64,000 nucleotides of DNA from positions 682,001 through 746,000 of the forward strand of contig RSEE01000021.1 of assembly GCA_003971905.1 (NCBI GenBank), in the 5' to 3' direction. How positions within the stretch are numbered: the stretch's first letter is position 1; every line of letters begins with the position of its first letter. The notes below the pieces were generated by a model that was given only the letters and a program-made list of their open reading frames with translations, was not told the DNA's origin and searched no databases. This stretch comes from Moniliella sp. 'wahieum'. Its lineage: Eukaryota. Below, in pieces: positions 19,371 through 61,128 of this stretch. The position numbers were made by a program, and so were the translations under genes.

Positions 19371-20787
19371 ATGGCCTTCGACGAGCTCCAGGCTCCGGCC
19401 ACCATCGACAGCATCACCGACGGCGTCCGCAACATCCGCGTCGACGCCACCGCCCTCACCCCCCTCTCCCCCGAGGTCATCCGCCGCCAGGCCACCATCA
19501 ACATCGGCACCATCGGCCATGTCGCCCACGGCAAGTCCACCGTAGTCAAGGCCATCTCCGGCGTCCAGACCGTCCGCTTCAAGAACGAGCTCGTGCGCAA
19601 CATCACCATCAAGCTCGGCTACGCCAACGCCAAGATCTACAAGTGCGACAACCCCGACTGCCTCCGCCCCGGCAACTACGCCTCCTTCCCCAGTGACACC
19701 GAGGACCACCCCAAGTGCGCCCGCCCCGGCTGCTCCGGCACCCTCAACCTCGTCCGCCACGTCTCCTTTGTCGACTGCCCCGGCCGACATCCTGATGGCC
19801 ACCATGCTCAACGGTGCCGCCGTCATGGACGCCGCACTGCTCCTCGTCGCCGCCAACGAGCCCTGCCCGCAGCCGCAAACGTCGGAGCACTTGGCCGCCG
19901 TGGAGATTATGCGGCTGGACCACATTATCATCCTTCAAAACAAGGTCGACCTCATCCGCGAAGAGGCCGCCCAGGAACATTGGCGCCAAATCAAGCGATT
20001 CACCCACAAAACCCAAGCTGCCAACTCACCCATTGTGCCCATCTGCGCCCAGCTCAAGTACAACATTGATGCCGTCCTGGAACAGCTGGTTACCACCACC
20101 ATCCCCATCCCCATCCGCGACTTTACCGCCCCGGCCCGCCTGATCATCATCCGTTCCTTTGACGTCACAAGCCCGGCGCAGAGGTGGAGGAGTTGCAGGG
20201 CGGTGTGGCCGGTGGCTCGATCCTCCGCGGCGTTCTCAAGGTGGGCCAAAAAGTGGAGGTGCGGCCCGGTTTGAGCACCCGAGATGAGCAAGGCAACCTG
20301 CTCACTATGCCTATCCAAACCCGTGTCGTCTCGCTCCATGCGGAACACAACAACTTGGACTTTGCCGTGCCTGGTGGCCTGATTGGCGCCGGGACCAAGA
20401 TGGACCCGACGCTGTGTCGCGGAGATGGGATTGTGGGACAAGTACTGGGCGAGACGGGGTCGCTGCCGACGGTATACCATGAACTTGAGCTGTCCTACTT
20501 CCTCCTGCGTCGGCTGTTGGGTGTCGCGTCCGACGACAAGAAACAGATCAAGGTGCGCAAACTCGAGGCGGGAGAGGTACTGATGCTTTCCATTGGATCC
20601 CTCACCACGGGTGGAAGGGTGCTGTCGATCAAGGCGGACATGGTGCGCATCGCACTCACCAAGCCCGTGTGCGCCGACTATGATGAAAAGGTCGCGCTGT
20701 TCGCGGCGTGTGGACAAGCACTGGCGTCTGATTGGCTGGGGCAACGTCAAGGCCGGCCAGGCCACCCCGCTCAAGGAACACAACTGA
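19371..20787 (+). CDS. GCD11: Translation initiation factor eIF2 gamma subunit (no intron seen; several 1-2 nt deletions)
   Basis: [102 protein letters not shown]. Confidence 0.97.
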
Positions 20788-23700
20788 CGAACGAATGGCT
20801 GTCTGTGTACCGTCGACTTTATCCTTGCATTCACGTCTACTGCTCCGATTGCACGCTGTGGTGGGGGGGGAGTCAGAAGCTAGGTTGGTACAGGTTCTAG
20901 TCCCCAGTCAGTCTGTATTGTACTAGGTAGGCCAACTAACAACAGCAAACCCGTACCGCAGGACTATTAGTAAGGATTGCAGAGCTGGTTGGTTTGGATC
21001 ATCTCGTTCCATTTTCCATATATCCCACCAGTATGCCCGGGCGAATGTGGGTAGGATGGACACGGGTATAGGATTGTCTGGGCGAAGCCTGCCAGCGCCG
21101 ACAGCTTTCGCCATCAGCAGTCTTTGCCATTCGAGCGCGAACGACTTGAGCATGTCATTGAGCATGTCATGGGCGAGGCTGCTAGTAGCTTCTGGAACTC
21201 AAGGGTACGCTTTGCTGGCCCCGCTGACGACCACAGTCGACCTGTATTTTACTGCTTCTGTCTATGTATTCTCCTGTGCCGGGAGATGTTGCCATTCCAT
21301 CATCACCCCATCAATCCATCTATCGCATCTATAGGCAAAACATTTTCCTTCCCCCGCCGGCCTTGCCTTCCATCCATATCTCTGTCCGCTTCTCTTCCCG
21401 GTATTACCGGGTGCTTGCTTACATCCTTCAGCCTCTCTTCCTATTTTCCACCCTCTTTAGTTCATGTGAGTGTAGTAGGGGGCTGATTTTATGCACTCTG
21501 GTTGGATTGTTTGTGCCTGTGCTTGGCTTTTCTAACTTGCCCACGCAACACGGCCACACTCACGCCACTCTCGTTGTGGCGGCCGCAACCCCTCACCTCA
21601 ATGCTTTTGTCCGCCGGCAAATTCTACCCATTCCTTACCTGTTAGCGTCATACCGAAAACCACGTTCTGCAAATGATTATAACCTCTCCCCGTTGTCCCT
21701 ACTCCACACATCGGATCGGATCCACCGCCCTCCTTCAAAATGCTTCTGAGCCTCACCTGTTTGATGCGGAGCCACCTCTTCCGTGGAGCAGCGTTCATAT
21801 GTTTTCCTCCCCCCCGCCGCCCTTGGGGTGCCCACTGTGGAAAATGGACGACTTCCGTGGCTCCCGGGCCTGCACAGTGCGTGTATACTGCATGAGGGAA
21901 AATCGCGCCTGCTGTGACTATAAAGAGCATTGCTGGGTTCCCTCAACTTTAAAGCAGAGCAACTGCCAGTGTGCGCGTCATCGCTCTCGGGAGCGTAACT
22001 ATAACTGCTTGGCACGGGCATATAGTGGAGCTGTGGGTCTCACGACCCAAAACTAAAGTGAGTGTTCCCTTGAACAAACTCTGGCCGTGCAGTTCATGGC
22101 CGACCCACAGCCTATTACTTTTCAACTCTGTCGTCGACCGATCCGACCTGAGGGGGGAAGCGAGGTGAGAACCCGTTTTCAGCAGCGTGTCGACTCGCAT
22201 GACAAGAAAACACCCGATCGGGCAAGCCAAGGGGACGTGAATTCCTTGGCCTCACAGGGTTGCCTCGAACGGCGGGTTAACTTCACCCCCACTTTTCGGC
22301 ACCTATATATCAAAAACTCGCCGATTGGATACACAGGGAGTACCATGTCCATTTTATGTACTTGGTGGAACAGGGAGAGAGGAAGAATGTCCTGTATGGG
22401 ATGAAGAATGAGGAGCGAGGGGAGGGGCGAATTCAGTTCTTCGAACATCGGTTAACTCAGACTTTGATGACTGATGAGAACGCGCTCATATAGAGAGAAA
22501 AAGGCAACTATACTGCTAGTAGCAACAACCATTCATTCACCGTAGAGCTGGCAGTGAGTCGTCGTTCCGCTGTGGAGAGGCGGCACTAATATACACTTAA
22601 TGTGAGAGCAAGTTAGATCCAGGAGAGAGCTGGGCGAGATGATGATCAAACCTGCCTCACCGCCATAGGAGAAAGGGAATAACGAATGTTTTCTCTGTTG
22701 CTGGCGGGTTGCATCCTGATCGGACCGCCGCCAATTTGGACTATGGGCTACTTCCACTTTTGTTTATGCCCTGTACCCCCGCCCCCAACTAAGACTGGGT
22801 GGTGCAGGGACCACACCTCTGTGCATGGACTATTAGTTGGCAGGCTCGTTCCAGTCGGACCACATCGCCCCCACTGCAAAAGGCATCGTACCACAGGGTT
22901 GGAACGCGTCTGCATACGCCTCTATGTTCACTATGGTCTCTATCATTCTTCGAGAAGGTAGTAGCTTATCTGTTGTTTGTTTTCCGAACATATATAGTGC
23001 TTGAATCCGATGTTGCTCACCTCCGTTAAATCCGAACGGCGCCTTTCTCATGATGCCCAAAAGGCCACAGGGATAATGCGAAGACGGGCTGGCGAGCTCA
23101 CAGGCGAGCCTACGCGCCCTATTCGCTCCGTGTGGGCCACCTGACGCAAAGGCGAAGATGATGATAGAGAAACGTGAGGCAGCGGCCGATCAAAAAGTGA
23201 AGACCTCTCTTGTGAAGGAGAGCGTACTGTTTTTACTTGCTGGACTCACTCCCCTGATTTAATTCCAATCTTATCCGACCGGAGTCCAAAGCTCGTTCCC
23301 AACCCCAACATACTTCCAATCTTGGAGTCACCGTACCTTATCTCCCTGTGGCCCAAACACTCATCGGCCACGTATATCCGTCGCAACGAGACTAGCTAGT
23401 GGATCCTTATACCTCTGTTTACCTATTCTGCTCCCTGTCCTCCCGATTTCATTCCTGTTGAAAATGGAGCCCAGCACGTCTCCATTGGTTTTGCTGTTAC
23501 CCGAGGGGAAACTTTCTCTCTTCGTGGCACTGCTTCCTGTACACAGCGGATTTCAAAAAGAGGTAAAAATGTCAGCGATGTCCGGGAGCTGACATCGGCT
23601 ACGTGTTTGCTTGGGTTTGAGGAAAATGATGTGAGCGAGGTCATATTGACCCATCGCAATGCAAAAAAGTACCCTCGAAGACGATTGCACTGCATTCGAT

Positions 23701-23795
23701 GGTACTAGAATGAGTAGTAGTGTAAAATGTAATACCGATAATAACCCAGGGAGAGCGAGCAAGGAGGATCAGATTCGTCAGATACGTCGCCCACG

Positions 23796-23930
23796 GGCAT
23801 CAATGACGTTTCTGACGTTCACGGGGGTGACGTCGGCGACATAACTGACCTGCAGGGGGATGACATCGAGGACATATCTGACGTTCAGGGTGGTGACATC
23901 GACGACGTCACTGACCTGCAGCGCGCTGAC
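23796..23930 (+). repeat. ~4.5 x 30-nt coding-like tandem repeat (GINDVSDVHG GDVGDITDLQ GDDIEDISDVQ GGDIDDVTDLQ)
   Basis: GTGACATCGACGACGTCACTGACCTGCAG-type units at 30-nt spacing, open in one frame, alternating units most alike. Confidence 0.85.
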
Positions 23931-24633
23931 AGAATTGCCTCACCCGGGCAAATTACTCCTCTGACATTTTTGAAGGTATTTTATGTCTTAAACATAAATG
24001 ATGTCTTTTGGTGATCCTCTGTGTAGTCTTCCCTGGTATTTCAATTCGCCGTCACTTCTCTTTTAGTCCCCGCCGTCTCCAAAGATCGGGGCTTTCCCCG
24101 ACGATTCATTGGTGTCTCCACTTCCTTCGTCAATTTGTTCAATAGGGACGATTCCCTCGCAGTTTAGCCACTTGTTCGGATTTCCAACTTTTTACCCCCA
24201 CAGTAGCTCAGCTCCAGATTATCAGTGGTTAACCTGGGATTTAGTACCCCCCCTTAATTGAGAACAGCGTCGTCCTTCGCGGCCTCTGCTTCCATCCCCG
24301 TAATTAACGGTTTCACAAAGGCTACTTACTCTCCGTGCCTGCGTACCTCTGTGATACACAATGAACCACGGAATATATAGGCCGGGATCCCTATCTCTTT
24401 CTTTAGGATTTTCCATAACCTCTCCCAATACCAAGTGTACCTCACAAGTTAATACGTATGCAATTAACTTGTCCAAACCCTGCGTCGACAGCAACTCACA
24501 GTCCACCACAAAATGTAATGTTTCGAAACACGAAAGCCTGAATATGCTGTAACTATTCTGAGGTTTGGCAGGTGGGGTTATTGTCCAGCACCAACTGTCG
24601 CGTAAAAGACATCCGATTGGGCCAGAGAAAAAA

Positions 24634-25135
24634 ATGTCACTAAGGTCACGTCAGAGTGATGTACATCATCTCTATGGATGGATCGCATAAAATCGTGCTG
24701 ACATCCGTTCGACCTAGATTGCCCGAATCCGGAGTAAGGCTTCGTTTGCGGGCCGGCCAGATTGGGAGACAGAGGGCTTAATAATTACCACGGCTTAGAG
24801 CGCGGACTATGCCCAAGACGCCCCGGTTCTAGGACACAGGAAAACTGCAAAAGCGATCTTGGATGTAACTGAGATAAAATGTTGCCTAGGAACGAAATGC
24901 CACTTGGGGAGACCCGTGTATGACTACGCGATCAGTTCCAAATCCGTCGTCAACACCCGTGAGCCTGAAGTCAGTAAAAAATCTCCCATAGTGAGCCGTC
25001 ACAGGTTACCACAGTGAGGCTAATGTGGGGCCTCCAACATTTCACAAGCCCAGTGGGAGGGATGAAGACATAACAGGAAGAAAGAGTAAGAAGCTAACAC
25101 GCGTGTTTCGTCAGCGATTTGTCCTTTTCCTGTAG
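24634..25135 (+). pseudogene. Degenerate PD-(D/E)XK-nuclease-like reading frame
   Basis: One frame gives QSDVHHL...FAGRPDW (GRPD 24751-24762)...AILDVTEIK (EIK 24871-24879) with stops at 24688, 24715 and 24796; KLTRVFRQ follows in another frame (25091-25114). Motif match by eye only. Confidence 0.35.
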
Positions 25136-26433
25136 ACTAAGCAAACGAGTGGCAACGATTCCGCCTGCTGGGCTCGTAGAGAGACCGTGCCATGCCCTCT
25201 TCGACATTTAGATCTGACTTTCCTTTCTTTGCTCATGAGCATCAAACTTCGGATGATAGTCTACAAAGTATTTCGCTTTCGTAGCATGTTCATTGCACAT
25301 ATTCAGTGACAGTATCTATCACACTGCTGTTTGGCTATCCCACGAGGGTGTCCCAGTAAAAATCCGGGAACTTTTCTGCAACTAGTGGATTGTGCTAACC
25401 CCAAAGTCATAACATCTATTGCATAACCAAAAAGGGGGGAGTAGAAGACAATAAAAACAATTGCCGTAGTGCCACTGGTCGCATGTCACTAGTATAGCAC
25501 CAAATGAATTCGTGCTATAGGCAGTTACATCACGTGAGTGTCGCGAAAGGAACTAAGAGTATTGAATCCTGTCAAGCTATCACCGTAGAGTCGTGAATAC
25601 AAAGGACGTTAGTGAACATTTCCCCCCAGACCAGGTCGTTTCCTTGCCCTGATATAAACGTCCCGTAAAAAGAAATGTTCTCCATGTCCGCCCGTCCATC
25701 TAGTCATACGAAAAAGACATCGACAGAAGTTTTCTCTGGGTACCGTTCAGCCGGACCACCTGATATAGAGACTGAATCTCGGGTCATGCATGTGTGTGAA
25801 CACGTTTTCGCGAAATGTGTCTAGAGAATCATATGCAATCCACCATTTATAGCAGTGAAGTACAAATTACCCTAATTGTGTGTACGAATAAAAATAGTGA
25901 ATCGTATATCCCCAGTAAGATGATAATTGAATGCCACGACGATGTTTAATCGTCTCATCCGTGCTTCGGCCAAGTGCATGAAGATCTATCTAACAACTCC
26001 ATACAGATTTTTATATCTGCCCATTGGGGTATTTCATACCAGGCATGTGACGACTTCATATATCAATGCAGTGTGTGATGCTTCATAAGACACTATGCAA
26101 CACTACATGGAAGAATTCTTTAATGCTCGGCCTAGATACAAGTATATGACGAGTGAACATATTGCCCAGATACAGTAGTGCAAACAGTCAAATTCGTTCC
26201 CGGATGCTGCCGGTGAGACCAACGGGTGCATTTACATGAATCGGGTCATCATGCATCAACCCTTGTGAATACCACAAAAGGGTATGAATTGTTCACGCTC
26301 TTTTCGTTAGATCAACCCTATCTGTCGGCAAGGAAGCATTCATGAGGGGAGAAGACTGTACAAGTAAGAGACACTAGGGATCAATGATTTGCGGCGGTTT
26401 CTGCCACGGGCCCGTCTTGGAGGCTATCGTATT

Positions 26434-26683
26434 TTTACTTACTTGAGCTGATTTGTACATCTGAACAGGGCTAAGACACGAGGATAGTCCTCACTGTATG
26501 GCAGAGGCGGCTGCAAATGTCGCGATGCTGTGTAGCGCCGGTAACATGTCTGAAGCGTTCGGGTTCAAGGACAGAGTGGCAGCAGCTGCATCTGGAGTAG
26601 GATGTTGGGAGCGGCATGGCTGGAAGCGGGATCACACGCGGCTGAATGTAGCTGTGCTTCGACGTGGCACCTGGGAGGTACAC
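26434..26683 (-). pseudogene. Decayed paralog of the 27400-27874 frame
   Basis: CHSVLEPERFRHVTGATQ..CSRLCHT aligns with CHSLFLSLEDFRYINATSQ..CSRLCYT; DNA colinear; ends at a CAA|GTAAGT donor-like site. Confidence 0.55.
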
Positions 26684-27399
26684 GCGAACTGGATTGACTG
26701 AGGGACGGAGAGCCGAAGAGGGGACTTGAACGTCGAGGCACGGGGCAGGCCCCCCCAGGGGGGCTCGCCCGGGTTTATGGGGTACGATGCCTTAGGAGAC
26801 GAGAAGTCGACTCACTTTCCTCTTCATCCTTCTTCTAGGCAAACTCCACTCTTGCAACCTCCTCGCGGAGACGCTGCCTGGCGTTGCCTAACAAACAGTA
26901 AAGCGCTACTCGCGATCCTCCTACGTTCATGCCAGTGTTCCTTGGATTTTGGATCTGTATCGCGTTCAGTCATCTCGGTGAGTCTTGTCCCGATGGGCAG
27001 GGAAGGTCTCCGCCTGGGAAGCCAGCAACACCATCACAAAGGCGCCACAGTATGTTCGCTTTATTCGTATTAGTGCCACGGATAATTTGGGGGTGTGCAT
27101 TCGTCTGATCCTGTGCAGTCTTAGATTGGTCTGGGTGAGCGCACAGGCCAGTCCATGGCTTCTCCGTTTGCTTGTGCATTAAGAAAGCTCTCAAGGAAAG
27201 AGAACAAAGATATACGGATGCGGATCGCAAGCTTCTCAACATCATATGTCAATAGGGTGAGCTCACATTCCCTGACATACATTATCTACCAAACGGTGCT
27301 TTCCTCTTTCTTTCTGCGAGTGGGATAAAGGGTTGGTGGAACGAGGGACACCCGGTTTTTCAGGAGTACAATCCTTAGGGGTCCCAAGGGTCAACTGAA

Positions 27400-27874
27400 T
27401 TTACTTGCTTGAACTGTGTTTGGTGTATTGGAGCGGAACTAGGGACATGGAGTAGTGACCTCTCGGTGTATAGCAGAGACGGCTGCAGGAGTGTGACAAA
27501 AAGGCTGCCACGTCTGCTTCGGTTTGGGAAGTAGCATTAATGTACCTGAAGTCTTCGAGGCTCAGGAATAGGGAGTGGCACGGGGGATAAACGCCGTCAG
27601 AGACTGTATTCGATCTGGCCGAAGTATAGGACCCACACGAGTCGTCTCTGCAGTGGGGAGCGTAGAGACCAGGACGGGTAGCGAGGAGGTGGCTAAGAGG
27701 AGAGAGAATTGCCTGTACTGAATTGATGGGCAAGGACAAGAGTGAAGACGCCAATGGATCGTGGGGGAAATCCATTACACGGTTGCGGGGTTGGTATGGG
27801 ATAAAACCAAGTTCCCGGAACAAATGGTTTAAAAGCACGACCATAAGCTGTAAGTGGGTTTGGCCATTATCCAT
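27400..27874 (-). pseudogene. Gene fragment of unknown family (TEADVAAFL motif), paralogous to 26434-26683
   Basis: 157-aa ORF with protein-like composition; shared stretches TGCAGCCGyCTCTGCyATACA (19/21) and CAGyTCAAGyAAGTAAA. Confidence 0.5.
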
Positions 27875-28237
27875 ATCTCGCTATAATAGAAGTACTTAGC
27901 TTAACCTCGTGTTAAATTTGCGCCAGGGTTATATCCCAAGCAATTCGCACTTGTTTAATCCTAAGTTCGATCAAATGCATTTTTTGGGTGGGTTAGGGTG
28001 TTCATTCTGGCCTGCGGCCACATCAACTTTTTGTCACACGATCGATATGGGCCATAAGTTGTCCCGGGTCAAAAGTGAACTCTTCCTGACCTTGAGGGGA
28101 ACAGCCGTTTCTTGCGGACGGAAAACCAAGCTTAAATCCTTATTGTTGCCGATTCCGCTCTCGGGATGCAGACAAGCCCATACCGCGAGTCATTTGTACC
28201 ATTTCTGTCAGTGGCGAATATTGTTAGAGGGTGCTGC

Positions 28238-28407
28238 TAGGGTTCTCCTGCGCGGCCCTCAATGGATCCGTGACGCTCGCCTAGCCGAGCGGAAGCGTTC
28301 CGCTCGCAGGCCGCGCACGCCCTGCTCGCTCCATCTCCCTTCTCTCTCTCCTTTCTCCTTCCCTTCAGACGTTGCTTGAAGACTTGTGGCTCACCACTTT
28401 GCCTTCA
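28238..28407 (+). repeat. Diverged direct repeat, copy A
   Basis: Colinear with 30825-30984; exact 29-nt match CTCCTTCCCTTCAGACGTTGCTTGAAGAC at 28355-28383 and 30934-30962; begins with TAGGGTT. Confidence 0.9.
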
Positions 28408-28715
28408 TGCCTCGTCTGAAGGCTGCTTTGCAGCTGATCCATAGGATCGCGAGTGCTCCCAAGTCGCACTCTAGCATATATTGCTTACGGAGAGAGACAA
28501 ACAGGGAAACAACGCAAAAGAGAATTAACACGAGGCAGGGGAAAGAGAGGGGCGGTAGACGCAAGGACAACCTAGCAAGCAGCAGTGGTGAACACGGGAC
28601 GAATATTGTTGCAAATATATACCTATTTCCACCCGGGTAGAAGGAAATTAATAGTTGGGGTAGCGCGGATCATCGCTTGACCATCCGCGATCGAGAACTT
28701 GGTTTTGGGTGTTGG

Positions 28716-29125
28716 TCATCCAACCAATACCTGGGACCAGGGTGAAGCCCCGGTGACGAGGGCGAAGAGATCCTGTAGGCTCAGGTAGGCTCGCCTGCCC
28801 GTCTTGCGCATAACACTATTCGTAGTCGTCATCTTCCCTCTCACATATGTGCATTTATTTCCGTGTAAATCTGCACTCTCTCCACAGTATCTCCCGCACA
28901 AATTCCACTTCCATTCCACAAGGATCGACCGTTCCAGTCCGTGATAGAACCTATCCGGCCCTCCGATTTTCGTTTTGTCTCCAGAATCGTAAACCTGTGT
29001 TCAGACTGTTGTGGTATAATGCAGTGTGGCACGCTATAATACTAGTCTTGTCCGATCCGGTGCATACGCAACAACCTTGCCACACACGCGAAAATAGATG
29101 CCCCAACTAAGTGGGCCTCACCTGG
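28716..29125 (-). pseudogene. Degenerate PD-(D/E)XK-nuclease-like fragment
   Basis: GEAHLVGA (29122-29099), then after a stop and a frameshift IGGPDRFYHGLERSILVEWKW (28967-28905): PD followed by hydrophobic-E-x-K. Confidence 0.4.
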
Positions 29126-30824
29126 TCTCCACAGCTCTGCTCGCATCCAACACCATCAATCGAGCAGGTTCGATCAACTATGAGAAATCCGTTCTTTTCT
29201 CAGGGAGCGCACCCCTAAAATGGAAGGCCGCGGAGCCGGAGATGGAGAGGGTTCTATAGTTTGATAAAAGACCAGTCGTTGCTTCGCACAAACCGGGATC
29301 CGGGATAGTATGTGATTACAGCACATCTCGTCCTAGGAGAGAGCCCCAATTCTTGCTGTTGGGGGGCGCAGAAAACGGGTATGAGCGATGACGGGATTGG
29401 TGGTATATAAAGGGGGAAGATGATATAAATGACCATCCACAGCCACACGAGAGGCAACACACCAGCCCCCCTGGACCCATGCCACATGCAGTTCCTATAT
29501 ATCCCTTTAGCGGGTAGTATTACTACCCTTGGAAAAGAAGAACAAAACGAGCGTTTCAATAAAAAGTTCGTGAACAACCACAGCGGTGGGTGACTTTTCC
29601 GACACAACTATAGGTAGGCAGCGGACGAAACCTTTGGATGGGATCTGTGGTGGACTGAGTAGAACCCTGTGACCTCAGAGAGGCCTCTTAGGTGTAGACC
29701 AAAATGTTCTTGTCTGAAGTTTTGCTGGTTGGGATAACATTGTGGACTTCGGGAGGAAGAAAACTCGTCTGGGGGGTTTTATAACCATTTCCCATTTCAT
29801 TTCGGCTTTTCTTCCTTAATTGCGATTTTCGACCCTGCTTTTATGGCTGCGATTTGGATGCGACCTCTTTATGTATGGCCTGGGCGCGTTTTGAGCAATG
29901 TTTTCCTTGACGCCATTTGGTCCTTTCTCCGGTTAGTAGAAGTACTTTTGTTTTCTCGTCGAGTCCGTGTTGAAGCTACAACTAGGAAGATGACAATATC
30001 CACGTGTACATGGGGATCCTGCCCTTCAATTCATGAGGTGCTGGGAAGAGGAAAATATGCGCTTGGGAAGGTACTAAACGTTATTACTCTCTTGATTTTC
30101 AAAGGTGGTACTGCGCACATTGCTATTGGTGCCTATGTCGTTTTGCTCCACGGATAATGAGTGAAAGCTCCCGACTCTGCTCTCCAGGAGGTCGGACTAG
30201 ATGATGAACAACACAATGCTCAGGTCTTTCTAATGAATCCTGGACTTCAAATCACTAGCCCAAGAGATGAATCGACGCTGTGCTCTTGGTTCTCAAGCCC
30301 AAAGTCGTTGCTTCAAAATCGAGGGGGGGGGGGTATGACAAGAAGGTGCCCCATAGCAACTGCTGCTCCGTTGATCAACGCAGTATCTTTGATCAGATCA
30401 ACAACAGAGCTCTAGTACTCCCATTGCACGTTATGATCCCCTCCATTCGTCTCAAGCTTTTCTCCCGAACGGCGATCACACAGGCGGGATCCCCATTAGT
30501 CTCAACTCAGGATCGCATTATCGATCACGCAGTTATATGTTGACCACTGCAAAATCTGTGGGGGCCACCAAGAATATCAACAGGATGAGTTGGACGCCAC
30601 ATTTTTGGGTTTGGAGGACTGAAGATGCTAGAGTGTGGGCACCCAGTCCCAGAAAAGGAGAGCTTGTACCAGTTACGCTGACATCTTGTCGTTCTCACAG
30701 ACCATAGGCGGTGATATCCTGCCATATAGTTGACGAGGAAAACAAGGATACGGCGGCCGGATCGATACGGATTAGCAGTGTACACTCTCCGTCAGCGCGT
30801 CGACAGTGTTGGAGGGTAGCGTTA

Positions 30825-30984
30825 TAGGGTTCCCCTGGACGGCCCTCGGCTGATCGGTGACGGTCGCTTAGTCAGGCGGAAGAGTTGCTCTCGCAGGTTG
30901 TGCATCCCAGCATCTCCCTTCTCTGCCTCCCACCTCCTTCCCTTCAGACGTTGCTTGAAGACGTGGCTTAGCACTTTGCCTTCA
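30825..30984 (+). repeat. Diverged direct repeat, copy B
   Basis: See copy A; CCGCGCACG in A reads TTGTGCATC in B. Confidence 0.9.
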
Positions 30985-31915
30985 CACCTTGAGCGATTTT
31001 ATGGGATCAGCTTACGTCGCACTCTGGCAGACAGAAGTCTCATGCGTATTAGTCTGGTTGAGACTGAGACAGAACGGTCACGCGTGACGTATCGTATCGG
31101 CCGGCTGTTCTGTTTCCCTGCTGCAGATCATTCTGGAAAGGCTGCCGGCTGATACGTTGATCGTCCGAGCACAAGACCCTCGGGGGATCGTTTGACTCAC
31201 CGATGCGCATGACCAATGGAGCAAGCTGGAAGGGAACAGACATAGGAGTGGGCAGCGCGCACGTGGGCAGAGGCGATGCGCTGATCCGTCCGGGCGAGGC
31301 GGACGATACGGATGCCAGGATTCATTAATCATTGTCTGGGTAGACAAAAAACGCGCCGCTGAGGCAATACTTAGTACTTACTGCGTAGCCATTATTCATT
31401 CCCTATTCACTCTTCCCTCTTCCTGCGTGCTTCGTCGATCATCGACTATCGCCATGCCAGCGCAACCCTACCCTAAGCGAGCTAACCCTAGCGCGCCGTG
31501 CTGCCGACGTGGAGGCCGCCAGGGTGCGCGCTCTGGCATGTGACGCACAGCGCCACTCGCACGCTCGGCAGCCCGGCACTGGCGCCGTGCGGCGGCCTTA
31601 GCGCGTCCGGCCCCGCGCGTGTCAGCGCAGCAGCGCGCCCGCGCCCACACGGGACCCACACTGCCCCCCGGCCGCGCTGCCTGCGGTTGCCCCGCCTTTG
31701 GACGACACGCTGCACAGCGCCAGTGCCGGGGCCGGCGGCCACGGCGCCGGTGTGGCGCGGGAGTGGCGCAGAGCGGGCTGCGCAAGGCTGCGCTCGCGCG
31801 TCGCTCGCAGGCAGCCCGCCGATCTTTCCCTTGCAGGAATCTCCCGCGCCCACTTCTTAAGCTCCGCCCGTGTCACTCCACCTCCTCCTCCACCACCACC
31901 TCCCCCCCCGCCCCC

Positions 31916-33522
<1,607 letters not shown>

Positions 33523-34300
33523 GGCCTCTGCAAGTCTGTGGGCGCTCCTGGCGTCCGGGGCAACAAGACTCACTATGCTGCACTGCACTAATGTACATTT
33601 CTTGCGCTTGGAGGTTGCTTTTTCTCTCTCTCTCGGCGGGTAGTATAGCACGGGACAGAAGCCGAGATCGCGACGGCAGGGCAGGGCGAGGAAAGGAAGA
33701 GGCTGGTCACAAGCAGCATAGCATCCCGCACGACTGGGTCTGCGTGGCATCGTCTTGAGATTGGACATGGGATGGACGAGCGAGGATGGGTGATGTGATG
33801 TTCACCATCCCACTGGTGTTGAACGTTGAATGTTGGGGCGATGCCCCAATCACGCCATCCTGCGTGATAGTCATCACCCCTCTCTTTCCGCCCGGAAGCT
33901 TCCTCAGCTCCGCGGTACCCTCGTCTATATAAGGCCCTACCCTTCTCATAGCCTCCTGTACCTCTCCTCAGAACCACATCCTCCATTCCACTCCTCCTTC
34001 AGCATTGAACACGTTGAACGTGTTGAACGTTGAAGACGTTGAAGGTTGAAGGTTGAAGCTTGAAGCTTGAAGTGTGGTGGCATGTGGGGCATCACTTGGT
34101 TTGATGGCTTGATCGACGTGATCGGCCATGTCGCTGGCAAGCGGAACTGGCTATAGAGCTCCGCGACTCGCCGGATTGTTGTCTCTGACTTTTCCCACCC
34201 TGCACTGCACAGGTGAACTTCTGGTTCTCTCTTCCTGTTCTCTTCCTGCTTCTGGCGCTTGTCCTTGTCCCGCGGTTGCATTGAAGGTTGGACTAGCGTC

Positions 34301-34351
34301 ACGCGCGTCACGCGTTACGCGTTAGGCTTAGCGCTTAGGCCCGTTACGCGT
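34301..34351. promoter_or_regulatory. Cluster of MCB-like ACGCGT sites
   Basis: ACGCGT at 34310, 34317 and 34346 plus ACGCGC at 34301, about 300 nt upstream of the ATG at 34640. Confidence 0.4.
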
Positions 34352-34639: not shown

Positions 34640-37600
34640 ATGGCGTCCGAGAAGAATGTGGAGATGAAGATGAAGACGGCGACGGAGACGGATGTGGCGA
34701 TGGAGATGGAGATGGGGATGGAGGCCGTGACGGTGACGGAGACGGGCCATCCAATGCCTGCCAGCACCGTCCCGCCCTGCGCCGGCGCCGCCTCCCCAGA
34801 TCCCGACGCGACTACCGCCCCGCTGAGCCTGCCCAGTCTCAATCGCCTGCTTTCCTCATGCTCGCGTCAACGGTGGGCAAGCTCCGCCTGACGATTTCGC
34901 CGCAGCTGGCTCAGTAAGTCCCATCTCTCTCTCTCTTTCTCCATGCTCATCCACGCACACACCATCCCGAGCGCATGGGCGCCGCCGAGCTCACCTGGTC
35001 TGACCTATCCTGTCCTGACGCGACCCACAGAGTTGTTGCCTCCCTCTCCGCGCCGCTTTCCGAGCCCGATGGGTTGGCGATTCGCGCCGCTGCGGCGCGC
35101 GTGCTGGGTGTGGTGGCGCGTACGCCGGGCCGTATATCAGCCAAGATTGCATCGCACCTGGCACGGGTACGTAGTGTCCCCTCGCTCTTTTCCTGTCTGC
35201 AGCAAGTCATCGACCACACGGTTCAATCCGGTTGTACCTCCTACACCGAGGAGATCAAGGTGATCGAAGCCGTGTTGCGTGCGCTCGGTGCCATTTGGCG
35301 TGTGACCGCCCCCCTGTGTGGCTTGCGCAACTTGCGCTACGGTGCCGGGCCTGGGCCCTACGTCCCCCTCTGGGGGGCCGAGGAGGACGAAGGGTTGCCG
35401 TTGATGGCGCAGCGCATGCTCACCGACAAGCAGACTGCCTGGACTCCTGGATTTTACCCCTACCGCGGCCCCGAGGCTGGTGATGAGGACCAAAGCATGG
35501 CCGAATGGATTTTGCTGCGGTGCATGTGGGTCGCCGAGCTGGACAGCTATGTGTTACCGGGCAACCTGCGCATCCTGCTCAGCTGCGTGTTCCTCACCGA
35601 AGATGTCGTGGTCGGATCTCCGGTCCTGGTCATCCCGCACTCGTACTGCTTCAAGGCACGCCATCATGCGGCGACTTTGGTGGCAGAGATTATTGCTTCG
35701 CAGTTTTCTCCCGACCTTGCTGTTGAGCTTGCGGTTGCCGAACAGTTCCGGTCCAAGGAAGAGTTGGCGCTCTACTATGGCTTGGGCATCGACGACCCCC
35801 AAGCCCGCCACCCTGGCTGGACCAAGGGGCCCTACCTGGACCCGCCGGTTCGACTGAGCCGCAGCCTAAGTGACTCTGCGAAGCTGTACGAATGTGTGCG
35901 CAGTTTGACCCGTACCGCCACTCGGTCTTCACACCGACCTCTGCTTTGCGCGTGACCCCCCCGATGCAGCGGGGCCGGTACTAAGCGCAAACTGTCGTCC
36001 GATCGCGATTCGTGCCCGCGTCCCACCCAGATCTTGAAGATGACAGAGGACAAAAACGGGCCGTGCAAGGAGGAGCCTCAATCGCCTCCGTCGCACCTCC
36101 AGTATGATCAGGAGGAGAATGAGTTCGGGCCCTCCATATCGCCGCTACTGGATTGTGTTGAATCCAACCTGGCTGCCTTGCGTGGTGAACCGGTACGTCG
36201 TGTTCCGTCCTCCGATTTTCGCTGCTTTTGGCTGACGCCCACCGTAGTCGGCGCAACTGCCCCTGATTGACATGTTAGTGGCCTTATGGGCTTTCGAATA
36301 TCACGACAGATATTACTGCGACGGCGTTGACACTGTCACAAACCGACTGACCAAATGGGGCGGTACTGTCTCAAGCCAACTGACCAAATGGGGCAGTGTG
36401 GCCGAGGGAACGAACTGCTGCGCGTGTGGCTGAAAGAATGGTACGTCGTTTATCAATATCACCGCCGACCCTCTCCCCCCCCTCTTCCTGAGACCGCTGT
36501 TGGTTCGCCGGCGCTTCTGGGTTATTGTTGGTACGTGCTGCTAACCCCCACACAGCAATGCGACAGTCCCGCCCTCGCCCGTCAAGCTGTCGGACCACTC
36601 GTTCGTCATGTCACCGCCTGCCTCCCACTTCAAGTCAAGAACCTTCTATGACAAGTGGCTGCGTTTGGGCTCGTACCCATTGACGACGATGATGGCTGCC
36701 CCGCATCGGTTTTACTACGGCATTTTATCCGACGGTATGTCCGAGGTTCCCAACTTCATCCTGGCCTGTCTGTGGAGTCGGCTGGACAAGCAGGGCGCTT
36801 ACTTCGGCCTTGTTGGCCAAGCTGCCCACGCGACCGTTTACCATGGCCCTATCCCCTTGACCCGGCCGAGGCTGCGGACCCGTTGGGCCAATTGGCGCTG
36901 CTGCAGCGGGAAGAAGAAGGGTTACTACGTTGTCTGGCTCGAGGGCGTGGTATCAGGACGTCGTTGCCGGGTGATTGGATCGAGCCGCCCCTGCCCACGG
37001 CGTCGTTGCGCTCGCCATCGCTCGGTGTGCGTGCGGAGGCGATCAAGACGCAGGTGTGGACAATCAAGAGCAGAGGTATTATGCCGAACTGTGGGGATGT
37101 GAAGGAATCTGGTATTCTGGAGCCAGGCGTGCGGTCGTCCTATCTGCTTCCTCCTGCTGAATGGGAGAAGGACGCTCGCTGGTGCGCACTTACTCATTCC
37201 GAAAGCATGCTGAGCATCGTGTATAAGATGTTTCAGATCGAAAGCCGCATGCCGGTTACCCGCCTCCCCTTCCGTCCGACAGCCCGCTGGTGCGTCTGGT
37301 GTTGACGCGGTCTCGGCCCAACTGCATCCGCCCTCGCGACTCGAAGGCTTCCGGAAACCGTACCTGATGTCAGAGATGATGCGTGGGCGCTCGATCGATC
37401 TGCTGGGCTTGATGAGTTTCCGCCCGGGCGCGTTTGAGGAGGTGTGTTACGAGGAGATTGGGGTTCCGTCTTTTTTTGCATTGGCAGGGGAAGACCAGCC
37501 TATTGCGATTCGATGCGCGGCTCTGTACTTTCTGTGCGTTCTCCGGTTTAGCCCAGATTGCCCGCGCACGTTCCACCGCGACGTGCCGCCTGCAGAATGG

Positions 37601-37998
37601 CTTGAGTTTTGCTGCGGCAAGCGCGGGCAGCGGTGAAGTTGGCGCCGTATGTGAGAGAAGCGGCAGTTGGAAGTGTACCACCGTCGGACTACAGTGACGA
37701 CGATGATGCTGGTCGGTGTCTTCGGAGGGGGACACTCGTGTGGAGAAGCTGGGCGACGAGTTTATGAATACCGACTGGATTAAGTGGGGAATACGGAGAG
37801 TACGACGATGTGTGTGAGCTCGTGTTTCGTCTGTGGAAAGAAACGTTTTCGCCGCAGCAACGGGCAGAAGACCATGTGGACGGCGTCCGCCTCTGTCCTT
37901 GCTCCTGTCTGCGACATGATCCGTGCGTTTGGGAAGAGCCGCATTCGTTGGATGGTGCGGAAAATCGATCGCGTGACGGCGGTCCTGAGTGCTTTTGA
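34640..37998 (+). CDS. Hypothetical multi-exon protein with ARM/HEAT-like helical segments
   Basis: IRAAAARVLGVVAR, VPSLFSCL, IEAVLRALGAIW, ARHHAATLVAEII, IAIRCAALYFLCVL; several GT..AG introns visible; may be more than one gene. Confidence 0.45.
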
Positions 37999-39536
37999 GC
38001 ACCGCTTGGACTCGAATGAGCTCTAGTTCGTATACGGACTTTGATCAACCAATGAAGGAACATGATTGTGTACTCAGTTGTGTGCATGTGTACTTTTGTT
38101 TGGTTTGATTTGTTTTGGGTGGTTCTGGGTGGTCAGTGGTTGGTTGGTGTTGGCTTTGATTTATGGATTTATCCCGCACACCTGGTGTGAATCAGTGCCG
38201 CACTGGGTTGGTTGAGCCCATTGGCCCACCCGCTTCGTATTTCAGAACCAACAAACAACTCACGTCATCCATTATATAGTGCTGCTCTGGAGTGTTGGAT
38301 TTCGTTTTGGTCCTCTCCTGTCCATTGCATGAACGTTGAGCTATGCATATGAACCGGTCTCGTCCCAGCCAGTGAGAGTCCAGCGAGTATTCCACGAGCA
38401 CGTGAAGCCAAAGCCCTATAATAAGCCTACGCCTCTGAAGTTTGCAAAGCCGCGAAATGAAGGAGCGACCATACCACTGTACAACCTCTCTTCAAGCTTC
38501 AAGGTTCAAGCCTCAGGCCTGAAGCTGGCCTGAAGCTCCTGAAGCTTCATTGTCATATAGTTTCTCACAGTTCGGCTCCCTCCGACCAGACGCATTGGTG
38601 CAGTCCTTTTTCTTGTCTGAGCGGATTCTATAGAGGTTTAGGTAACAGGGTAGAGCCGACAACCTCACGCGTGGGCTGAGGACCACGACCACAGTGCCGC
38701 CGGACCAGCAAAAAACTGTTCGCGAGGCACTCTCGAAAGGGTCTTAGTTCTCGCCATATAGCCGTAGCCATATATAACAAAATCCGATCCAGTAAGCAGT
38801 GAGTGAATGCCGTGGCGAGTATTATACTCTAGGCGGGCGCCGGACTCTCGAGCCCGACCCACCGTGCTTCAAGTAGCCATAGGTAAGTTCGGGCCCCGTA
38901 CCAAGCATATGGAACACCGGCGCGTATGGATGAATATGTGTACCGAATCCCGATTGAGGATGCAGGAACCACGGAACGTTCCCCGTCCGTTCCGTTCCAT
39001 TGTCAGTGAGTATTGAACTTGGGTGTGCTGGTCAAGTCGAAGAGGACGAGACGAGATGTGCATTGGCATCCTGCATCTGGCATCCTGCTCCCAAACACAC
39101 CGTACCCGTCGGGTTCGCAGGCATATTATGCATCATGTCCCTTGAAAATTCACTGGGAATCTTCCACAACCTTCCCCCCCCCTACTAGGTTCACTGTAAG
39201 CACCTACCGTACGTTGACGGCTGGATGCACCGTGCGCACATGCTATAGCTCAGTCCAGTTCCTTTTATAGCCAAGCAACTAAATAAGGACTCTAATTCAC
39301 ACATCCATTCACACGGATCCTGGATCCGGTTCTCGGTCTGAGGTGTCCAGCGGCAACGCGGGCACGAAAGCCACTGATGCCACATATCAGGGGAGAGAGA
39401 GCAGAGAATGCTGCAGTGCCTATAACGGCAGTCGAGTTGCGAGTTGCGAGTTGCGAGTGCACCACGTTCTCACCTTATTACTCGTTACCCCTTTAGGCCC
39501 TCATAGTTGGCCTGGGAGTTCTAAACCGTTGCCCAA

Positions 39537-42140: not shown

Positions 42141-43828
42141 ATGCCCACCTCCGCCTCTGCCTCCGCTCCACCACCGGCACCTCCCTCAGCCCCGCCCTGT
42201 CCCATCCCGACTGCTCCTCCGACCCAGACCGCAGCGGCTGGGACGACGGCACGGACGCCTTGCAGCTGGAAGACGGTGTGGAGTGGGACGCCGACGACCG
42301 CCCTGGCGGTCTAGACCTCTTCCGCCGCGCCCACATTCTCTGGCCCGAGCTTTTCCCCTTGCCCCGTAGCCCGTCCGCGCCGCCCCAGCGACCGCCAGTG
42401 GCCGACAGCTTGCCCCACGCCTGCCCCACCGCGCCTCCGTCGCTCGCACGCCTCTTTGCCCCCCCGCGCCGACCTCTCCGTCCCTCGTTCCTCCTGCCCG
42501 CCCGAACCTGACCTCGCCCGACCCTTACCCTTACCCTTACCCTTACCCATCACACAAGCCTCCCACACGGGCATCTTCCTCGTCTCTGCCTCGCTCGCAC
42601 GGACACCGGAGCCCTTTGATACCCCCTGCCGCGTCCCGCGCCGCCTCATCCGTTGGCAACACCCTGGTCCGAAGGCCCTCCTACGCCGCTGTTGCAGCCC
42701 AGTTCCAGTCCCAGTCCCAAGCCCACTCCCACACCCAGCGCCCAGCACCAACAGCTGCACCCAAGGCAGCGGGGACGTTGCGGCACTCGCCTTCGCTGCC
42801 CGGAAGTTTTTCAGGGCGAATAGGAGGCTCTAACCATCATCGAGCCTGTCCTTCTCCTTCCGTTTGTTCTACTCGTACTACCTTCTCTCCCTCCGCCTCG
42901 GATCCGCCGCTTGGGCCTGCTGCCCTTGCCCCTACTGCAAGTCCAACTTCAACTCTAGCTCCAACTACAACTCCAACGTCCCTTTCCACGCGACACGACC
43001 CTCCAGCTACCGCTCCCAGGACACTACGTGGGATGCGAAGCTTTGCCGATGTGGCCCGACGTGGTGGCAACGCCGGTGGGTCGGCTACGCGTGCCCATTA
43101 TCCTACCCATTCAGCCCATACCCTTCCCCCTACCCTTCCCGCTACCCTTCCGCGTACGCTTTCCCGGACGCTTCCCCGTACACTTCCTCCTACGCTTCCC
43201 CCTACGCTTCCCCTACGCTTCCCTCTCCCCTTTCCCGTACACTTCCGCGTCCGTTTACCCTTGGCCATGGGGTTAAGACTAAAGCTAGCGCAGGATACAC
43301 ACAGAGCAATCGTGCGCGCCGTCGAGACGCGCGTGTTCGTCCGACGCTCATCCCCCCCCGACGGATCCTGTGCCGCAGGAAGGCATGCGGTTCGATGCGG
43401 TGCAACGTACCTGGCTTCGCACCAGTGTCGAAGGTCAGCAGGAGGAGATGGCGTTGTTGCGTGCGTTTGAGGAGGAGGAGGAGAGAGACGCGCAAGGTGA
43501 GCAAGAGGAGAGGGGTGACGTGGTGGAGCAGAACAAGACGCACATGAATAAGAACACGAAGCCGCACACGGATAACCACACGAAGAAGAACACGAAGGAG
43601 AATGTGAAGGAGAGGAATACGAAGGAGAAGGAGGAGAAAAAGGTGGTGGTGGGGTCAGGGCTGAGGCTCGGTCGGGACCAGGTCGTAATAGCCAACGGAA
43701 GTGGCACCGTGGGTGACGGTCATGACCGACCAAGGGCGGTACCGGAGGGGTCAAGTTCGCCTTTGCACCGTTCCTTTCACCTGGCCGAACAACTTCATCG
43801 CCATCAAATGCGCATCTTGGGCCTCTAG
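42141..43828 (+). CDS. Hypothetical protein, weakly Byr4/Bfa1-like
   Basis: N-terminal WDD/EWDADD acidic motifs, P/S/T-rich middle, GMRFDAVQRTW...LLRAFEEE recalling the M-x-F/W-x5-W...L-x2-F motif of Byr4/Bfa1; recalled from memory, not aligned. Confidence 0.3.
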
Positions 43829-43962
43829 GTTCTACGCTCTACGCTCTATGCTGTACGCTGTATACTGTACGCTCTACGCTCTACGCTGTAAGCCCTAAGC
43901 TCTAGGCTCTAGGTTCAAGGCTTTTGGCCCTAGGTTCTAAGCTCTAGGTTCTAAGCTCTAGG
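43824..43962. repeat. Degenerate heptamer array (CTCTACG/CTCTAGG/TTCTAAG)
   Basis: About 19 imperfect 7-nt units read directly. Confidence 0.85.
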
Positions 43963-44980
43963 ACCTTGGGATCCTGTTGGTCCGCACGCCCGAGCCGATG
44001 TGGAGCGCAGGAACGGCGACGTGGGGCCAAGCGAGGCAAGGGGCGGGGGAGAGGATGAGGTCCTTGGGCTCGTCCTTGGGCTCGTTTTGCGTCGTGCGGG
44101 ATCGTCCTTGGGGTTTGCGCTCCGGTGGTGGTGTGCCACATGGGACACGCCACATGAGACATGGGACGGGGACATGGGATCCTATGACCCTGTGGTTCTA
44201 TGGTTCTGTGGTTCTGTGGCTGAGCGACATGGTGACTCTGACAGAGGGCCTTTGGTGAGTGGCGTGACATGTGACGGTTGTGACCGAGCTAGCCTAGGGG
44301 GGAGAGGAGAGGAGAGGAAAGTCTGCCGCCGAACCGATAATCGATCCTCGATCCTCGATCCCCGAAACGCCTTACCTGAACCATGCCCACGACAGCCACA
44401 GCGATGCTCAGCTCAGCGCTCAGGATGCGTTTGTTCCTTCGAAACCCTAAGGATTGGCAAGGATAGAAGGTCAATGATCAATGGTCGAAACGACCGGAAG
44501 GATCAAAAGGATCCCCACTACGCGCTACCACAACGAGATGTATTATCCTTTTGTGCACCCCTTTCCGTGCCGTCCAGCACTGGTTTGGGAGACTGATGGT
44601 TACCACTTACCACTTACCGCTTAGCGTGTACCGCCTACCGCCTACCGTTTACCTACCCTCCTTCCTACTCGACTATCCGGACGGGGAATTCAAGAGGACG
44701 GGGAATTCAAGAGGACGTCGGCACCCGAGTTCCGTACATGGCAACATGGAATCGAACATATTGAATTTGAACCAGTCGCATAAACGAGCAAGACGAGCAA
44801 GACGAGCGCGCGTACCGACAATGCATGTTTCTTTCTCCTCTCCTCTCCACTCCACTCCACTCCCCCCTCTTCTTTCCTCTCAGGGTTGAGGATCCTTGGC
44901 GCCCTCTCTCTCCTCTCCTCTCCTCTCCTCCTCTCCTCTCCTCTGAGGGTTGAGGATGCTTGACGTCCTCTCCTCACTTA

Positions 44981-56216: not shown

Positions 56217-56792
56217 GGCAGTGCGCCTGTAAGGGGGAGGGAGAGGGGGGACCGTGGCGAGGGAAGAGAGGGCGGAGGCTGAGCGCTGACACGGCCACAG
56301 CAGGGCAAGTAGTGGCGTATGTGGTGGATCTCAACTGTCCCAGGACGGCGAGGATCAAGCGAGTACTGCGCTCCGCTGAGCACCACCAGCTGCCATCTGC
56401 ATCTGCCATCTGCCATCTGCCATCTGCCATCTGCCATCCAATACCATCTGCAATCTCCTATCGTCCATCGGCCATCTGCCGCCCCTGCTCCGGCGGCGCC
56501 GCACAGGGCACTGTACCGCCCGAAGCACCCGCGCGGCGTTAGGCTGGCAAGCGGCAAGCGCTAAGCGACACAGCCACCCACACAGCCCCCTGCTGCCCGC
56601 CCGCGCCGTCTGAGATCTCAGTCTGAGATGCGGGTGCTCCGACCTGGTGGACTCGACTGCGTACTTCGACTTGGTGTACTTGGACTGGGTGTACTCGGCC
56701 TTGTCCTCGGACTGAGTGGGGTGGGACGGCGTCCTGTGTGGTTCGCCTTGTGGTCCAGCAGGGAGACCATCAATACAAAAAGGAAAATTGAA

Positions 56793-56887
56793 TCTCCCTC
56801 TGGGAGTCGAACCCAGGACATCAGAGCAGAGACGCACTCCACGTGACCAATTACAATCTGACGCTCTTCCAACTGAGCTAAGGAGAG
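56793..56887 (-). tRNA. tRNA-Tyr(GTA) with 24-nt intron (56827-56850)
   Basis: Minus strand: CTCTCCT TA GCTC AGTTGGAA GAGC G TCAGA TTGTAA [intron] C TCTGA TGTC CTGGG TTCGACT CCCAG AGGGAG A; T-runs downstream. The 3' acceptor strand is one G short, probably a homopolymer error. Confidence 0.88.
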
Positions 56888-59753: not shown

Positions 59754-61128
59754 GGTGGGAAGGCAACGGGTGGTGGGTGGGTGGGTGGGATGGACGGAGG
59801 GATGGATGGACGGAGGGATGGATGCACGGAGGGATGGATGCACGCAATGAGTCGATGCGGGCAGAAAGGCGTTGCCTAAGGCTTAGGCTTAGTTAGGCTA
59901 CGCGCTGCCGAGCTGAGTCGTCGGATGAGGCTGAGGTTTCAGCGGGGGCCTCTGCGGACAGTCTCAGTTTCCCAGCACGCAGACGCAGTGCGCCCTCCCG
60001 CGCCCACATCACAGCATCACAGCATCACATGCTTGCCGCAGCGCTGCCGTGTCCGCCCAGCTCCATGGAGCACCCATCCCATCCCATCCATCCCATCACA
60101 TTTGAATCACCCCCATCCCTCCGCCTCTCCATCTCACCCACCTAACCAACCCCATCCATCCCGCACCCGCCCTGCGCAAAACCACTCCACATCGACCCAC
60201 CCACGGTAACATTTCAGAGGCCAGACTCACATGTCACAGTACTCACATCTCACCTTGACATCGCAATGTTCAATGTTCAATGTTCAACGTTCAATGTGTG
60301 CAATGTTCAATGTTCAAGGTTGGGGATGCCTCCCCTACCCGTTTCCCCACGCATTTGGACCCGCCATAGAGCCATCCGTACCACCACCACCCCACTCAAC
60401 TCTCAACCAACGACGCTGAGGCGCAACGCGATGCACTGCGGACTACGGACGATATCGCTCAGGAGGCGCCCTTAGGCCAGCCAAGCTTACCTCTTCAGGC
60501 TTCAAGCTTCAGGCTTCAGTTTTCAGGCTATAGGTTAGCTGCACGTTCAACCACCCCCAGCCACAACCAGGCTGGTCATGGCAATGCGTCTGGAACTGCG
60601 ACTGGAAATGGGAATGGGAATGGGAATGGGAATGCACATAGTTCAGGGGGAACCCTTCCCCGCGTATACAGGCCCGCCCGAAGGAGGCGGAGAGCGGTAT
60701 GCGAGGAGCGAAGCGGTGAAGCGGCGGTGGGGCTGGAGGGGGGAAGGCACAGGACCGTGGGAAGCGGTACGGGTAAAGGGTAAAGGGTAAACGGTGAAGG
60801 TGGGTGGAACGGCCAACGCGGACCGTTGCGTCAAGGAGCGAGGAAAAGAGAGCGAAAACGAAAGAGAGTGAGAGGGGAGAGTAAGAGGCGGGAGGGGCGG
60901 GGGGGGGGGGATGTGGGTAATCATGGGGGTATTGGGGGTAATTGAGGAGAATGGGGGAGAAGGGGGAGAATGGGGGATGGAGGTAAAGGGGGGGGGGTGG
61001 GGGAAGGGGGGAGAAGGGGGGATAACGGGCGCATGTGTACAGAAGGGGACCTGAACCCTGTTACAGGGTATAAGAAGAGTCGGACCAAAAAGCAGCCCTC
61101 AGGCCCTCAGGCACTCAGGCACTCAGGC

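Follow-up and report, generated by a model that had tools for sequence, protein, structure and literature searches.

A gene-free, lower-GC island of old mobile-element debris as a candidate small regional centromere in Moniliella sp. 'wahieum'

Introduction

The systems closest to the locus described here, a gene-free island of about 11 kb in the yeast Moniliella sp. 'wahieum', are the regional centromeres of basidiomycetes. In the account of Yadav et al. (PMC5866544), the predicted centromeres of Ustilago maydis are free of open reading frames (ORFs), poorly transcribed and about 4-37 kb long, with a mean of 12 kb; Table S3 of that article places 11 of the 23 at 7.0-12.2 kb. They were first predicted from HobS-rich sequence, with transcription and synteny also used, according to the same account. 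The centromeres of Cryptococcus deuterogattii, mapped there by CENP-C, measure 8.8-21.7 kb and contain retroelement remnants only, and both species are given as devoid of DNA methylation, U. maydis being also devoid of a DNA methyltransferase (PMC5866544). Kwoniella centromeres are listed with a median of 6.7 kb (PMC11185503). Those of Malassezia are described as an AT core of less than 1 kb, 78% AT and without repeats, lying in a GC trough between genes; the 3-5-kb domain around it extends over genes as well (PMC7025860). Salmacisia centromeres, for which the predictors were a low GC, a low density of genes and long terminal repeats (LTRs), are given as 32-181 kb (PMC10849329).

The island lies between the genes for eIF2-gamma and UDP-galactopyranose mutase (UGM) in a stretch of 64,000 nucleotides, called the window hereafter (contig RSEE01000021.1 of assembly GCA_003971905.1, positions 682,001 to 746,000). 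It is real, it is free of genes, and it consists of old debris from mobile elements. By analogy with described systems, it is a candidate small regional centromere, or the immediate heterochromatic domain of one, of the type found in U. maydis, C. deuterogattii and Kwoniella, in a Ustilaginomycotina-related yeast; this reading, the most likely one, is given an even chance. The original prediction had already proposed a centromere or heterochromatin island. This proposal is still a fair one in view of a size within the U. maydis and C. deuterogattii range, of LTR remnants and of a central core, while two of its components, a hint of decay by CG methylation and an origin from gene paralogs, are not supported.

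A gene-free block with sharp edges

20770..31450, no strand: gene-free, lower-GC island, the candidate centromere (GC 0.50; change-point, ORF/Pfam and period-3 tests)

The island is real, non-coding, compositionally distinct and sharp-edged. Its lower GC, noted from the start, is found at 0.500 for positions 20920-31400, against 0.654 on the left (1-20919) and 0.594 on the right (31401-64000), and 25981-26160 does have a GC of 0.378 and 3 CpG. Maximum-likelihood change points put the edges at 20,770 and 31,450; the island measures 10.7 kb by composition and 11.1 kb from gene to gene. The contrast with non-coding DNA alone is modest, the island standing only 7 points below it (0.50 versus 0.57), and one 1.45-kb spacer has a GC of 0.51. 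The other non-coding blocks (n=11) were delimited by eye with the help of period-3 and Pfam results and all belong to the right arm. They are 0.4-2.0 kb long, and 10 of the 11 stay under 1.5 kb, in agreement with the original remark that most other intergenic gaps are below about this length.

ORF length is a weak test at this locus because the reading frames of both flanking genes are broken, three times in eIF2-gamma and twice in UGM, that is about once per 500 nt. By eye, each break is a single indel, in most cases within a short run of bases, and looks like a long-read error; frame-tolerant tests were therefore used. None of 150 stop-free island frames and none of 54 stop-read-through frames reaches the Pfam cut-off, the stop-free scan covering 150 of the 190 island frames of at least 38 amino acids and the read-through scan covering the remaining 40. 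Rfam gives no match in the island and ARAGORN finds no tRNA there. In 240-nt windows, the period-3 chi-square averages 6.5 in the island for a null value of 6, and it exceeds 22.5 in one of 85 windows, versus 19% of 443 windows outside. These blank results uphold the claim that no intact gene is present. Long ORFs occupy 14% of the island, compared with 79% of the 10 kb upstream of UGM in the two closest UGM loci having that much upstream DNA.

The island was also said to be built from decayed gene paralogs. Island frames match neither the genes of the window nor any of 286 further proteins that were fetched, the majority being homologues of UGM and eIF2-gamma, and the best repeat pair has the anatomy of solo LTRs. 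As nothing links the island to host genes, this part of the original prediction is unsupported. Its remark that no reverse transcriptase, integrase or transposase can be recognised is borne out by the Pfam scans and by integrase profile and alignment searches, all negative.

Several isolated signals were discarded. A reading frame of the AT-rich core has one weak match (E=3.5e-4), to a 63-residue tandem-repeat sequence, among 1.8 billion representatives, and this was judged due to chance. A sub-threshold Pfam match to a retrotransposon peptidase at 29611-29778 on the minus strand (E=0.15) does not rise above the noise to be expected with 150 frames. By eye, an integrase-like pattern seemed to run along the right half of the island on the minus strand; it has no PDB match at E<=10 and no protein match; tblastn, a profile and frameshift-aware alignment, all derived from five Ty3/Gypsy-like viral-contig integrases, gave it no support either, this profile being narrow, so that very decayed remnants may escape it.

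Solo-LTR-like elements and other repeats

28222..28476, no strand: element a, solo-LTR-like, of 255 bp; ends TG...CA with an inverted match at 7/8 positions, flanks of 5 bp AATAT/TATAT (4/5)
30807..31029, no strand: element b, solo-LTR-like, of 223 bp; ends TG...CA, identical flanks of 5 bp GACAG/GACAG
29025..29486, no strand: a possible further solo LTR of 462 bp, the third; ends TG...CA with an inverted match at 7/8 positions, identical flanks of 5 bp; present once, P=0.14 versus 200 shuffles, not significant alone
27400..27773, plus strand: segment with both partner fragments (27400-27580 and 27682-27773), from self-comparison
24090..24178, plus strand: repeat-family fragment, inverted copy of 27682-27773, 70% identical, 49.7 bits
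26434..26581, plus strand: repeat fragment, direct copy of 27400-27580, about 69-74% identical, core 39.7 bits
23798..23929, plus strand: 33-bp tandem array, 3-4 copies, reading as an acidic 11-residue repeat; the only island window with strong period-3

Compared with itself, the island shows one strong pair, a direct repeat of 220 bp (E=2e-34), besides two weaker ones of 49.7 and 39.7 bits, both above the maximum of 29.7 bits obtained with 20 shuffled islands. The two copies of the strong pair end at the same point and resolve into 28222-28476 and 30807-31029 (elements a and b), which form one family in which 180 positions match and 41 are substituted. A solo LTR of a Ty1/Copia or Ty3/Gypsy element has TG...CA ends, a short terminal inverted match and a 5-bp target duplication. 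Both a and b display TG...CA termini with a target duplication in the 4-6-bp range sought for a solo LTR, their flanking duplications matching at 4/5 and 5/5 positions at homologous ends; the joint chance is 1.5e-5 for fixed ends, though the left end was itself chosen. They are thus like Ty1/Copia or Ty3/Gypsy solo LTRs in their ends, terminal inverted match, 5-bp duplication and length of 220-260 bp. They differ from them in that a weak similarity continues for 27 nt beyond their left ends and in the absence of a parent element within the window. The two copies are not taken for the ends of one complete LTR element from 28222 to 31029, since its outer flanks differ and a separate duplication borders each copy. 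An internal inverted repeat at 28362-28422, whose 10-bp stem is perfect, is present in copy a and missing from copy b.

Together, the two copies amount to 478 bp of solo-LTR-like DNA. No further copy was found within the window, no exact match of the repeat core was found in metagenome contigs, and blastn of the island DNA against 85 fetched loci gave no match. Further TG...CA candidates number 4 for 1.44 expected (P=0.04), none of them being secure singly. Elements with 7-bp duplications show no excess (3 versus 0-5 in shuffles), and neither terminal repeats spanning the island nor CACTA-type ends with a target duplication were found.

The fragments 24090-24178, 26434-26581 and 27400-27773 may belong to one family, as the last holds the partners of both others. 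All recognisable repeats cover 1,120 bp, or 11% of the island. The 89-residue frame around the 33-bp array has no usable Atlas match. The surrounding region, 23400-24300, resembles coding DNA more than any other part of the island (period-3 values of 14.8, 31.5 and 14.7), and two AT-rich GT...AG stretches of about 50 nt each are visible by eye around the array; a decayed intron-containing gene is possible there.

An AT-richer core

25204..26303, no strand: AT-richer core, GC 0.425, beside the island midpoint (about 26.1-26.4 kb)

None of 300 shuffles of the island gives an 1100-nt stretch of so low a GC. The core is 57-60% AT, far from the approximately 78% AT over less than 1 kb that defines a core of the Malassezia type. 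A short hairpin with an 8-bp stem (25483-25530) lies beside CTAG within the core; its 29.7 bits are at shuffle level. A Helitron end may be considered for it.

Scarcity of short tandem duplications

The spacers of the window are rich in tandem duplications of 6-7 bp, which are more than 10-fold rarer in the island. At lag 7, the 10.5 kb of the island hold 2 duplications and the 14.2 kb of the other spacers 34 (P=8e-7); at lag 6 the counts are 1 versus 22 (P=5e-5). TNA-palindrome-TNA motifs number 4 versus 22 (P=0.003), the 4 of the island still exceeding the chance expectation of 0.7. Likewise, tandem arrays occur at 2.9 per 10 kb in the island versus 17.7 and 23.9 in the arms, in line with the near-absence of microsatellites noticed at first sight. 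Only 2 of the 150 Tandem Repeats Finder arrays among the matches listed (188 in all, the listed ones reaching 59.5 kb) fall in the island. Old repeats combined with few such scars suggest DNA long shielded from the duplication process, although plain distance from promoters gives the same pattern. A literature search on microsatellite depletion at fungal centromeres surfaced nothing on point, which is not to claim its absence from print.

Elsewhere in the window, dense duplications of 7-bp period stand in intergenic DNA at 33950-34350, 43823-43962, 58245-58323 and 60240-60540, and an intergenic two-copy 64-bp repeat with pyrimidine-rich tracts at 44837-44972.

CpG, methylation and repeat-induced point mutation

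The island has 552 CpG for a shuffle expectation of 651 (z=-5.2). Its observed/expected ratio of 0.84 is nevertheless not below that of the other non-coding blocks (0.81), so that CpG decay of the C. neoformans type, taken as a proxy for dense CG methylation, is not seen. TpG/CpA ratios are 1.09-1.10 in the island versus 1.09-1.16 in the arms. The three repeat pairs contain 61 transitions and 41 transversions, 11 of the 61 transitions being at CpG for 11% expected (P=0.07). No deficit of C-centred trinucleotides was found in the island, nor the strong context-specific C-to-T excess typical of repeat-induced point mutation (RIP). From these CpG, TpG/CpA and transition counts, the island sequence carries no clear fossil of CG methylation or RIP. 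The hint of methylation-type decay in the original prediction is accordingly not supported: its count of 3 CpG in the 180 nt of 25981-26160 is exact, but the probability of 3 or fewer is 0.066 even before allowing for the selection of that stretch, and TG/CA, said to be many there, are over the whole island no more in excess than in the arms.

Flanking genes and synteny

19371..20787, plus strand: eIF2-gamma (GCD11), left neighbour, intronless; Pfam GTP_EFTU, GTP_EFTU_D2 and eIF2_C; four frames
31918..33522, plus strand: UGM, to the right of the island; a single short 5' intron, recognised by eye; frame broken twice

With the U. bromivora protein P0196 as query, tblastn recovers eIF2-gamma in 4 pieces over 19398-20784, the three main ones being 67-71% identical, and its C-terminal part is 66-67% identical to proteins of Malassezia, Ustilago and other fungi. 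As eIF2-gamma is usually a conserved factor, 66-71% identity to the best fungal relatives seems low; a fast-evolving lineage or a divergent paralog is possible. UGM is 93% identical to the Logan protein P0001 and 70% identical to the UGMs of Malassezia and Ustilago. On these grounds the host, a GC-rich basidiomycete, is taken to be a relative of the Ustilaginomycotina.

GC at third codon positions (GC3) falls along eIF2-gamma from 0.96 to 0.72-0.75, and the original prediction had described a GC fall from the 5' part of this gene into the island. The low GC of the island stands. The fall within the gene reads as a 5'-3' gradient because GC3 of UGM also falls from its 5' end, which adjoins the island and has its highest value (0.91, then 0.78-0.85).

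Among 80 UGM loci on metagenome contigs, many of them short, none carries another gene of the window. The locus tags of UGM and eIF2-gamma are 000295 and 004083 in M. furfur CBS9595 and 002435 and 000725 in U. hordei NDA11, and the two genes are on different contigs in U. bromivora. They are thus not adjacent in Malassezia and Ustilago, relatives which, at about 70% identity, are too distant for judging synteny.

Three further features of the window lie outside the island. To the right of UGM, 34900-38040 has one or more multi-exon genes with coding-like GC3 (0.73) and no Pfam match. ARAGORN reports a tRNA of undetermined type, probably intron-containing, at 56792-56886 on the minus strand. 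A 47-bp tandem array of 4.5 copies at 3637-3852 shares a gene region with a weak match to the RanBP1 domain, lies upstream of it and possibly encodes nucleoporin repeats.

Centromere or transposon debris

If the island is a small regional centromere, LTR retrotransposons would have inserted over a long time, and recombination and deletion would have reduced them to solo LTRs and fragments. Freed from coding constraint, the DNA may have drifted to, or stayed at, near 50% GC, while the process by which promoter DNA acquires short duplications would have had no access to closed, promoter-free chromatin. The position of CENP-A chromatin would be set epigenetically, the AT-richer core being one possible site, and a methylation footprint would not be needed, as in C. 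deuterogattii and U. maydis. The size supports this reading by comparison, 10.7-11.1 kb being within the published ranges and the other spacers reaching 0.4-2.0 kb. It is also supported by the non-coding content limited to mobile-element remnants, as in C. deuterogattii, together with the scarcity of duplications; by the central AT-richer core, which, on analogy, repeats in far weaker form the layout of the <1-kb AT core of M. sympodialis; and by the nature of the immediate neighbours, eIF2-gamma and UGM being conserved housekeeping genes. Several points weigh on the other side. The core is 57% AT versus 78% in Malassezia, no centromere-type retrotransposon family is recognisable in the island by Pfam or by integrase profile and alignment, and recognisable repeats explain just 11% of it. 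GC3 of eIF2-gamma (0.74-0.96) and of UGM (0.81) is not below that of more distant genes (0.68-0.87), so that no trough appears. Moreover, distance from promoters alone could explain the scarcity of short duplications, for which the control spacers were picked by eye and all in the right arm. In the account of Lynch et al. (PMC2997560), yeast centromeric GC3 troughs are 100-300 kb wide; a trough of this kind can be wider than the window.

The same debris could have accumulated away from any centromere, an early insertion between two genes having become a neutral landing pad in which further elements nested and all decayed. The low GC would then be the native composition of the elements plus drift, and duplications would be few as the interior is free of promoters. 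Such a graveyard would contain what is seen here, solo-LTR insertions that happened twice independently and another repeat family; the CpG ratio equal to that of other spacers, the 11 of 61 transitions at CpG, the lack of a GC3 trough in the flanking genes and a GC just 7 points under other non-coding DNA agree with it as well. The island offers, however, no tRNA or other evident landing site, and the significant AT-richer core near its midpoint also speaks against this explanation, which is somewhat less probable than a centromere. Sequence alone cannot tell the candidate centromere from an ordinary transposon graveyard, both being known kinds of structure. A single large foreign or mobile insertion, whether a giant transposon, an endogenous virus or horizontally acquired DNA, would owe its low GC and few scars to late arrival, and would fit the sharp compositional edges and the near-absence of the short duplications typical of the window. 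Yet no terminal repeat with a target duplication spans the island, the coding periodicity and family matches that a recent insertion should retain are missing, and the internal repeats are 19-30% diverged, which makes such an origin very unlikely. Decayed paralogous host genes, or genes hidden by assembly indels, would agree with the frame breaks of the flanking genes that make ORF length unreliable, with the acidic peptide repeat read from the 33-bp array and with a repeat family in three fragments. They are contradicted by period-3 at null level in 240-nt windows, by the lack of any match to window genes, fetched proteins or Pfam, and by a core frame that finds nothing among 1.8 billion representatives beyond one weak match to repetitive sequence; this explanation is the least probable of all.

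A bolder version of the centromere reading would make the island a true centromere between the Malassezia type, with its short AT core, and the Ustilago type, with its retrotransposon block: unmethylated, of nearly unique sequence, with solo LTRs only and a weak core, the 6-7-bp scars forming a fossil map of accessibility that is blank over centromeres. This is doubtful. Were it true, all centromeres of the lineage could be called from sequence alone. A centromere here would in any case bring a Ustilaginomycotina lineage with little sampling so far into the series running from kilobase AT-rich (Malassezia) to transposon-rich (Ustilago, Cryptococcus) forms, and would provide a small, uniquely mappable locus for chromatin immunoprecipitation and plasmid-stability work. 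If it is not a centromere, the island is ordinary transposon debris. Across a genome, comparing the density of short duplications is an inexpensive way to test which deserts are closed chromatin.

Comparison with described centromeres

The island is free of ORFs over a length that falls in the 4-40 kb range of basidiomycete regional centromeres and is the largest such gap of the 64-kb window; its LTR remnants, in the sense of the Cryptococcus and Ustilago types, consist of two solo-LTR-like copies with no coding remnant. It fails to resemble the C. neoformans type by the CpG-decay proxy. As described in the articles cited in the Introduction, U. maydis centromeres are, like the island, large ORF-free gaps, in their case of a gene-dense smut genome and associated with retrotransposon sequence; they were first predicted from HobS-rich sequence, whereas the island has only solo-LTR-like pieces and no recognisable retrotransposon coding sequence. 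With the centromeres reported for C. deuterogattii and Kwoniella, the island shares a similar size and the absence of ORFs, and with those of C. deuterogattii also a content of transposon remnants and, by the CpG proxy, the lack of signs of CG methylation. Both are Tremellomycetes, in which Tcn remnants are described as common to the centromeres, whereas the island is compared as one locus. Malassezia belongs to the same subphylum and, in its published description, likewise has an AT-richer core of about 1 kb within lower-GC intergenic DNA; this core is 78% AT and repeat-free, whereas that of the island is 57% AT and lies inside 11 kb of repeat debris. By this comparison, size and content make the island resemble the group of U. 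maydis, C. deuterogattii and Kwoniella, with a core much weaker than that of Malassezia.

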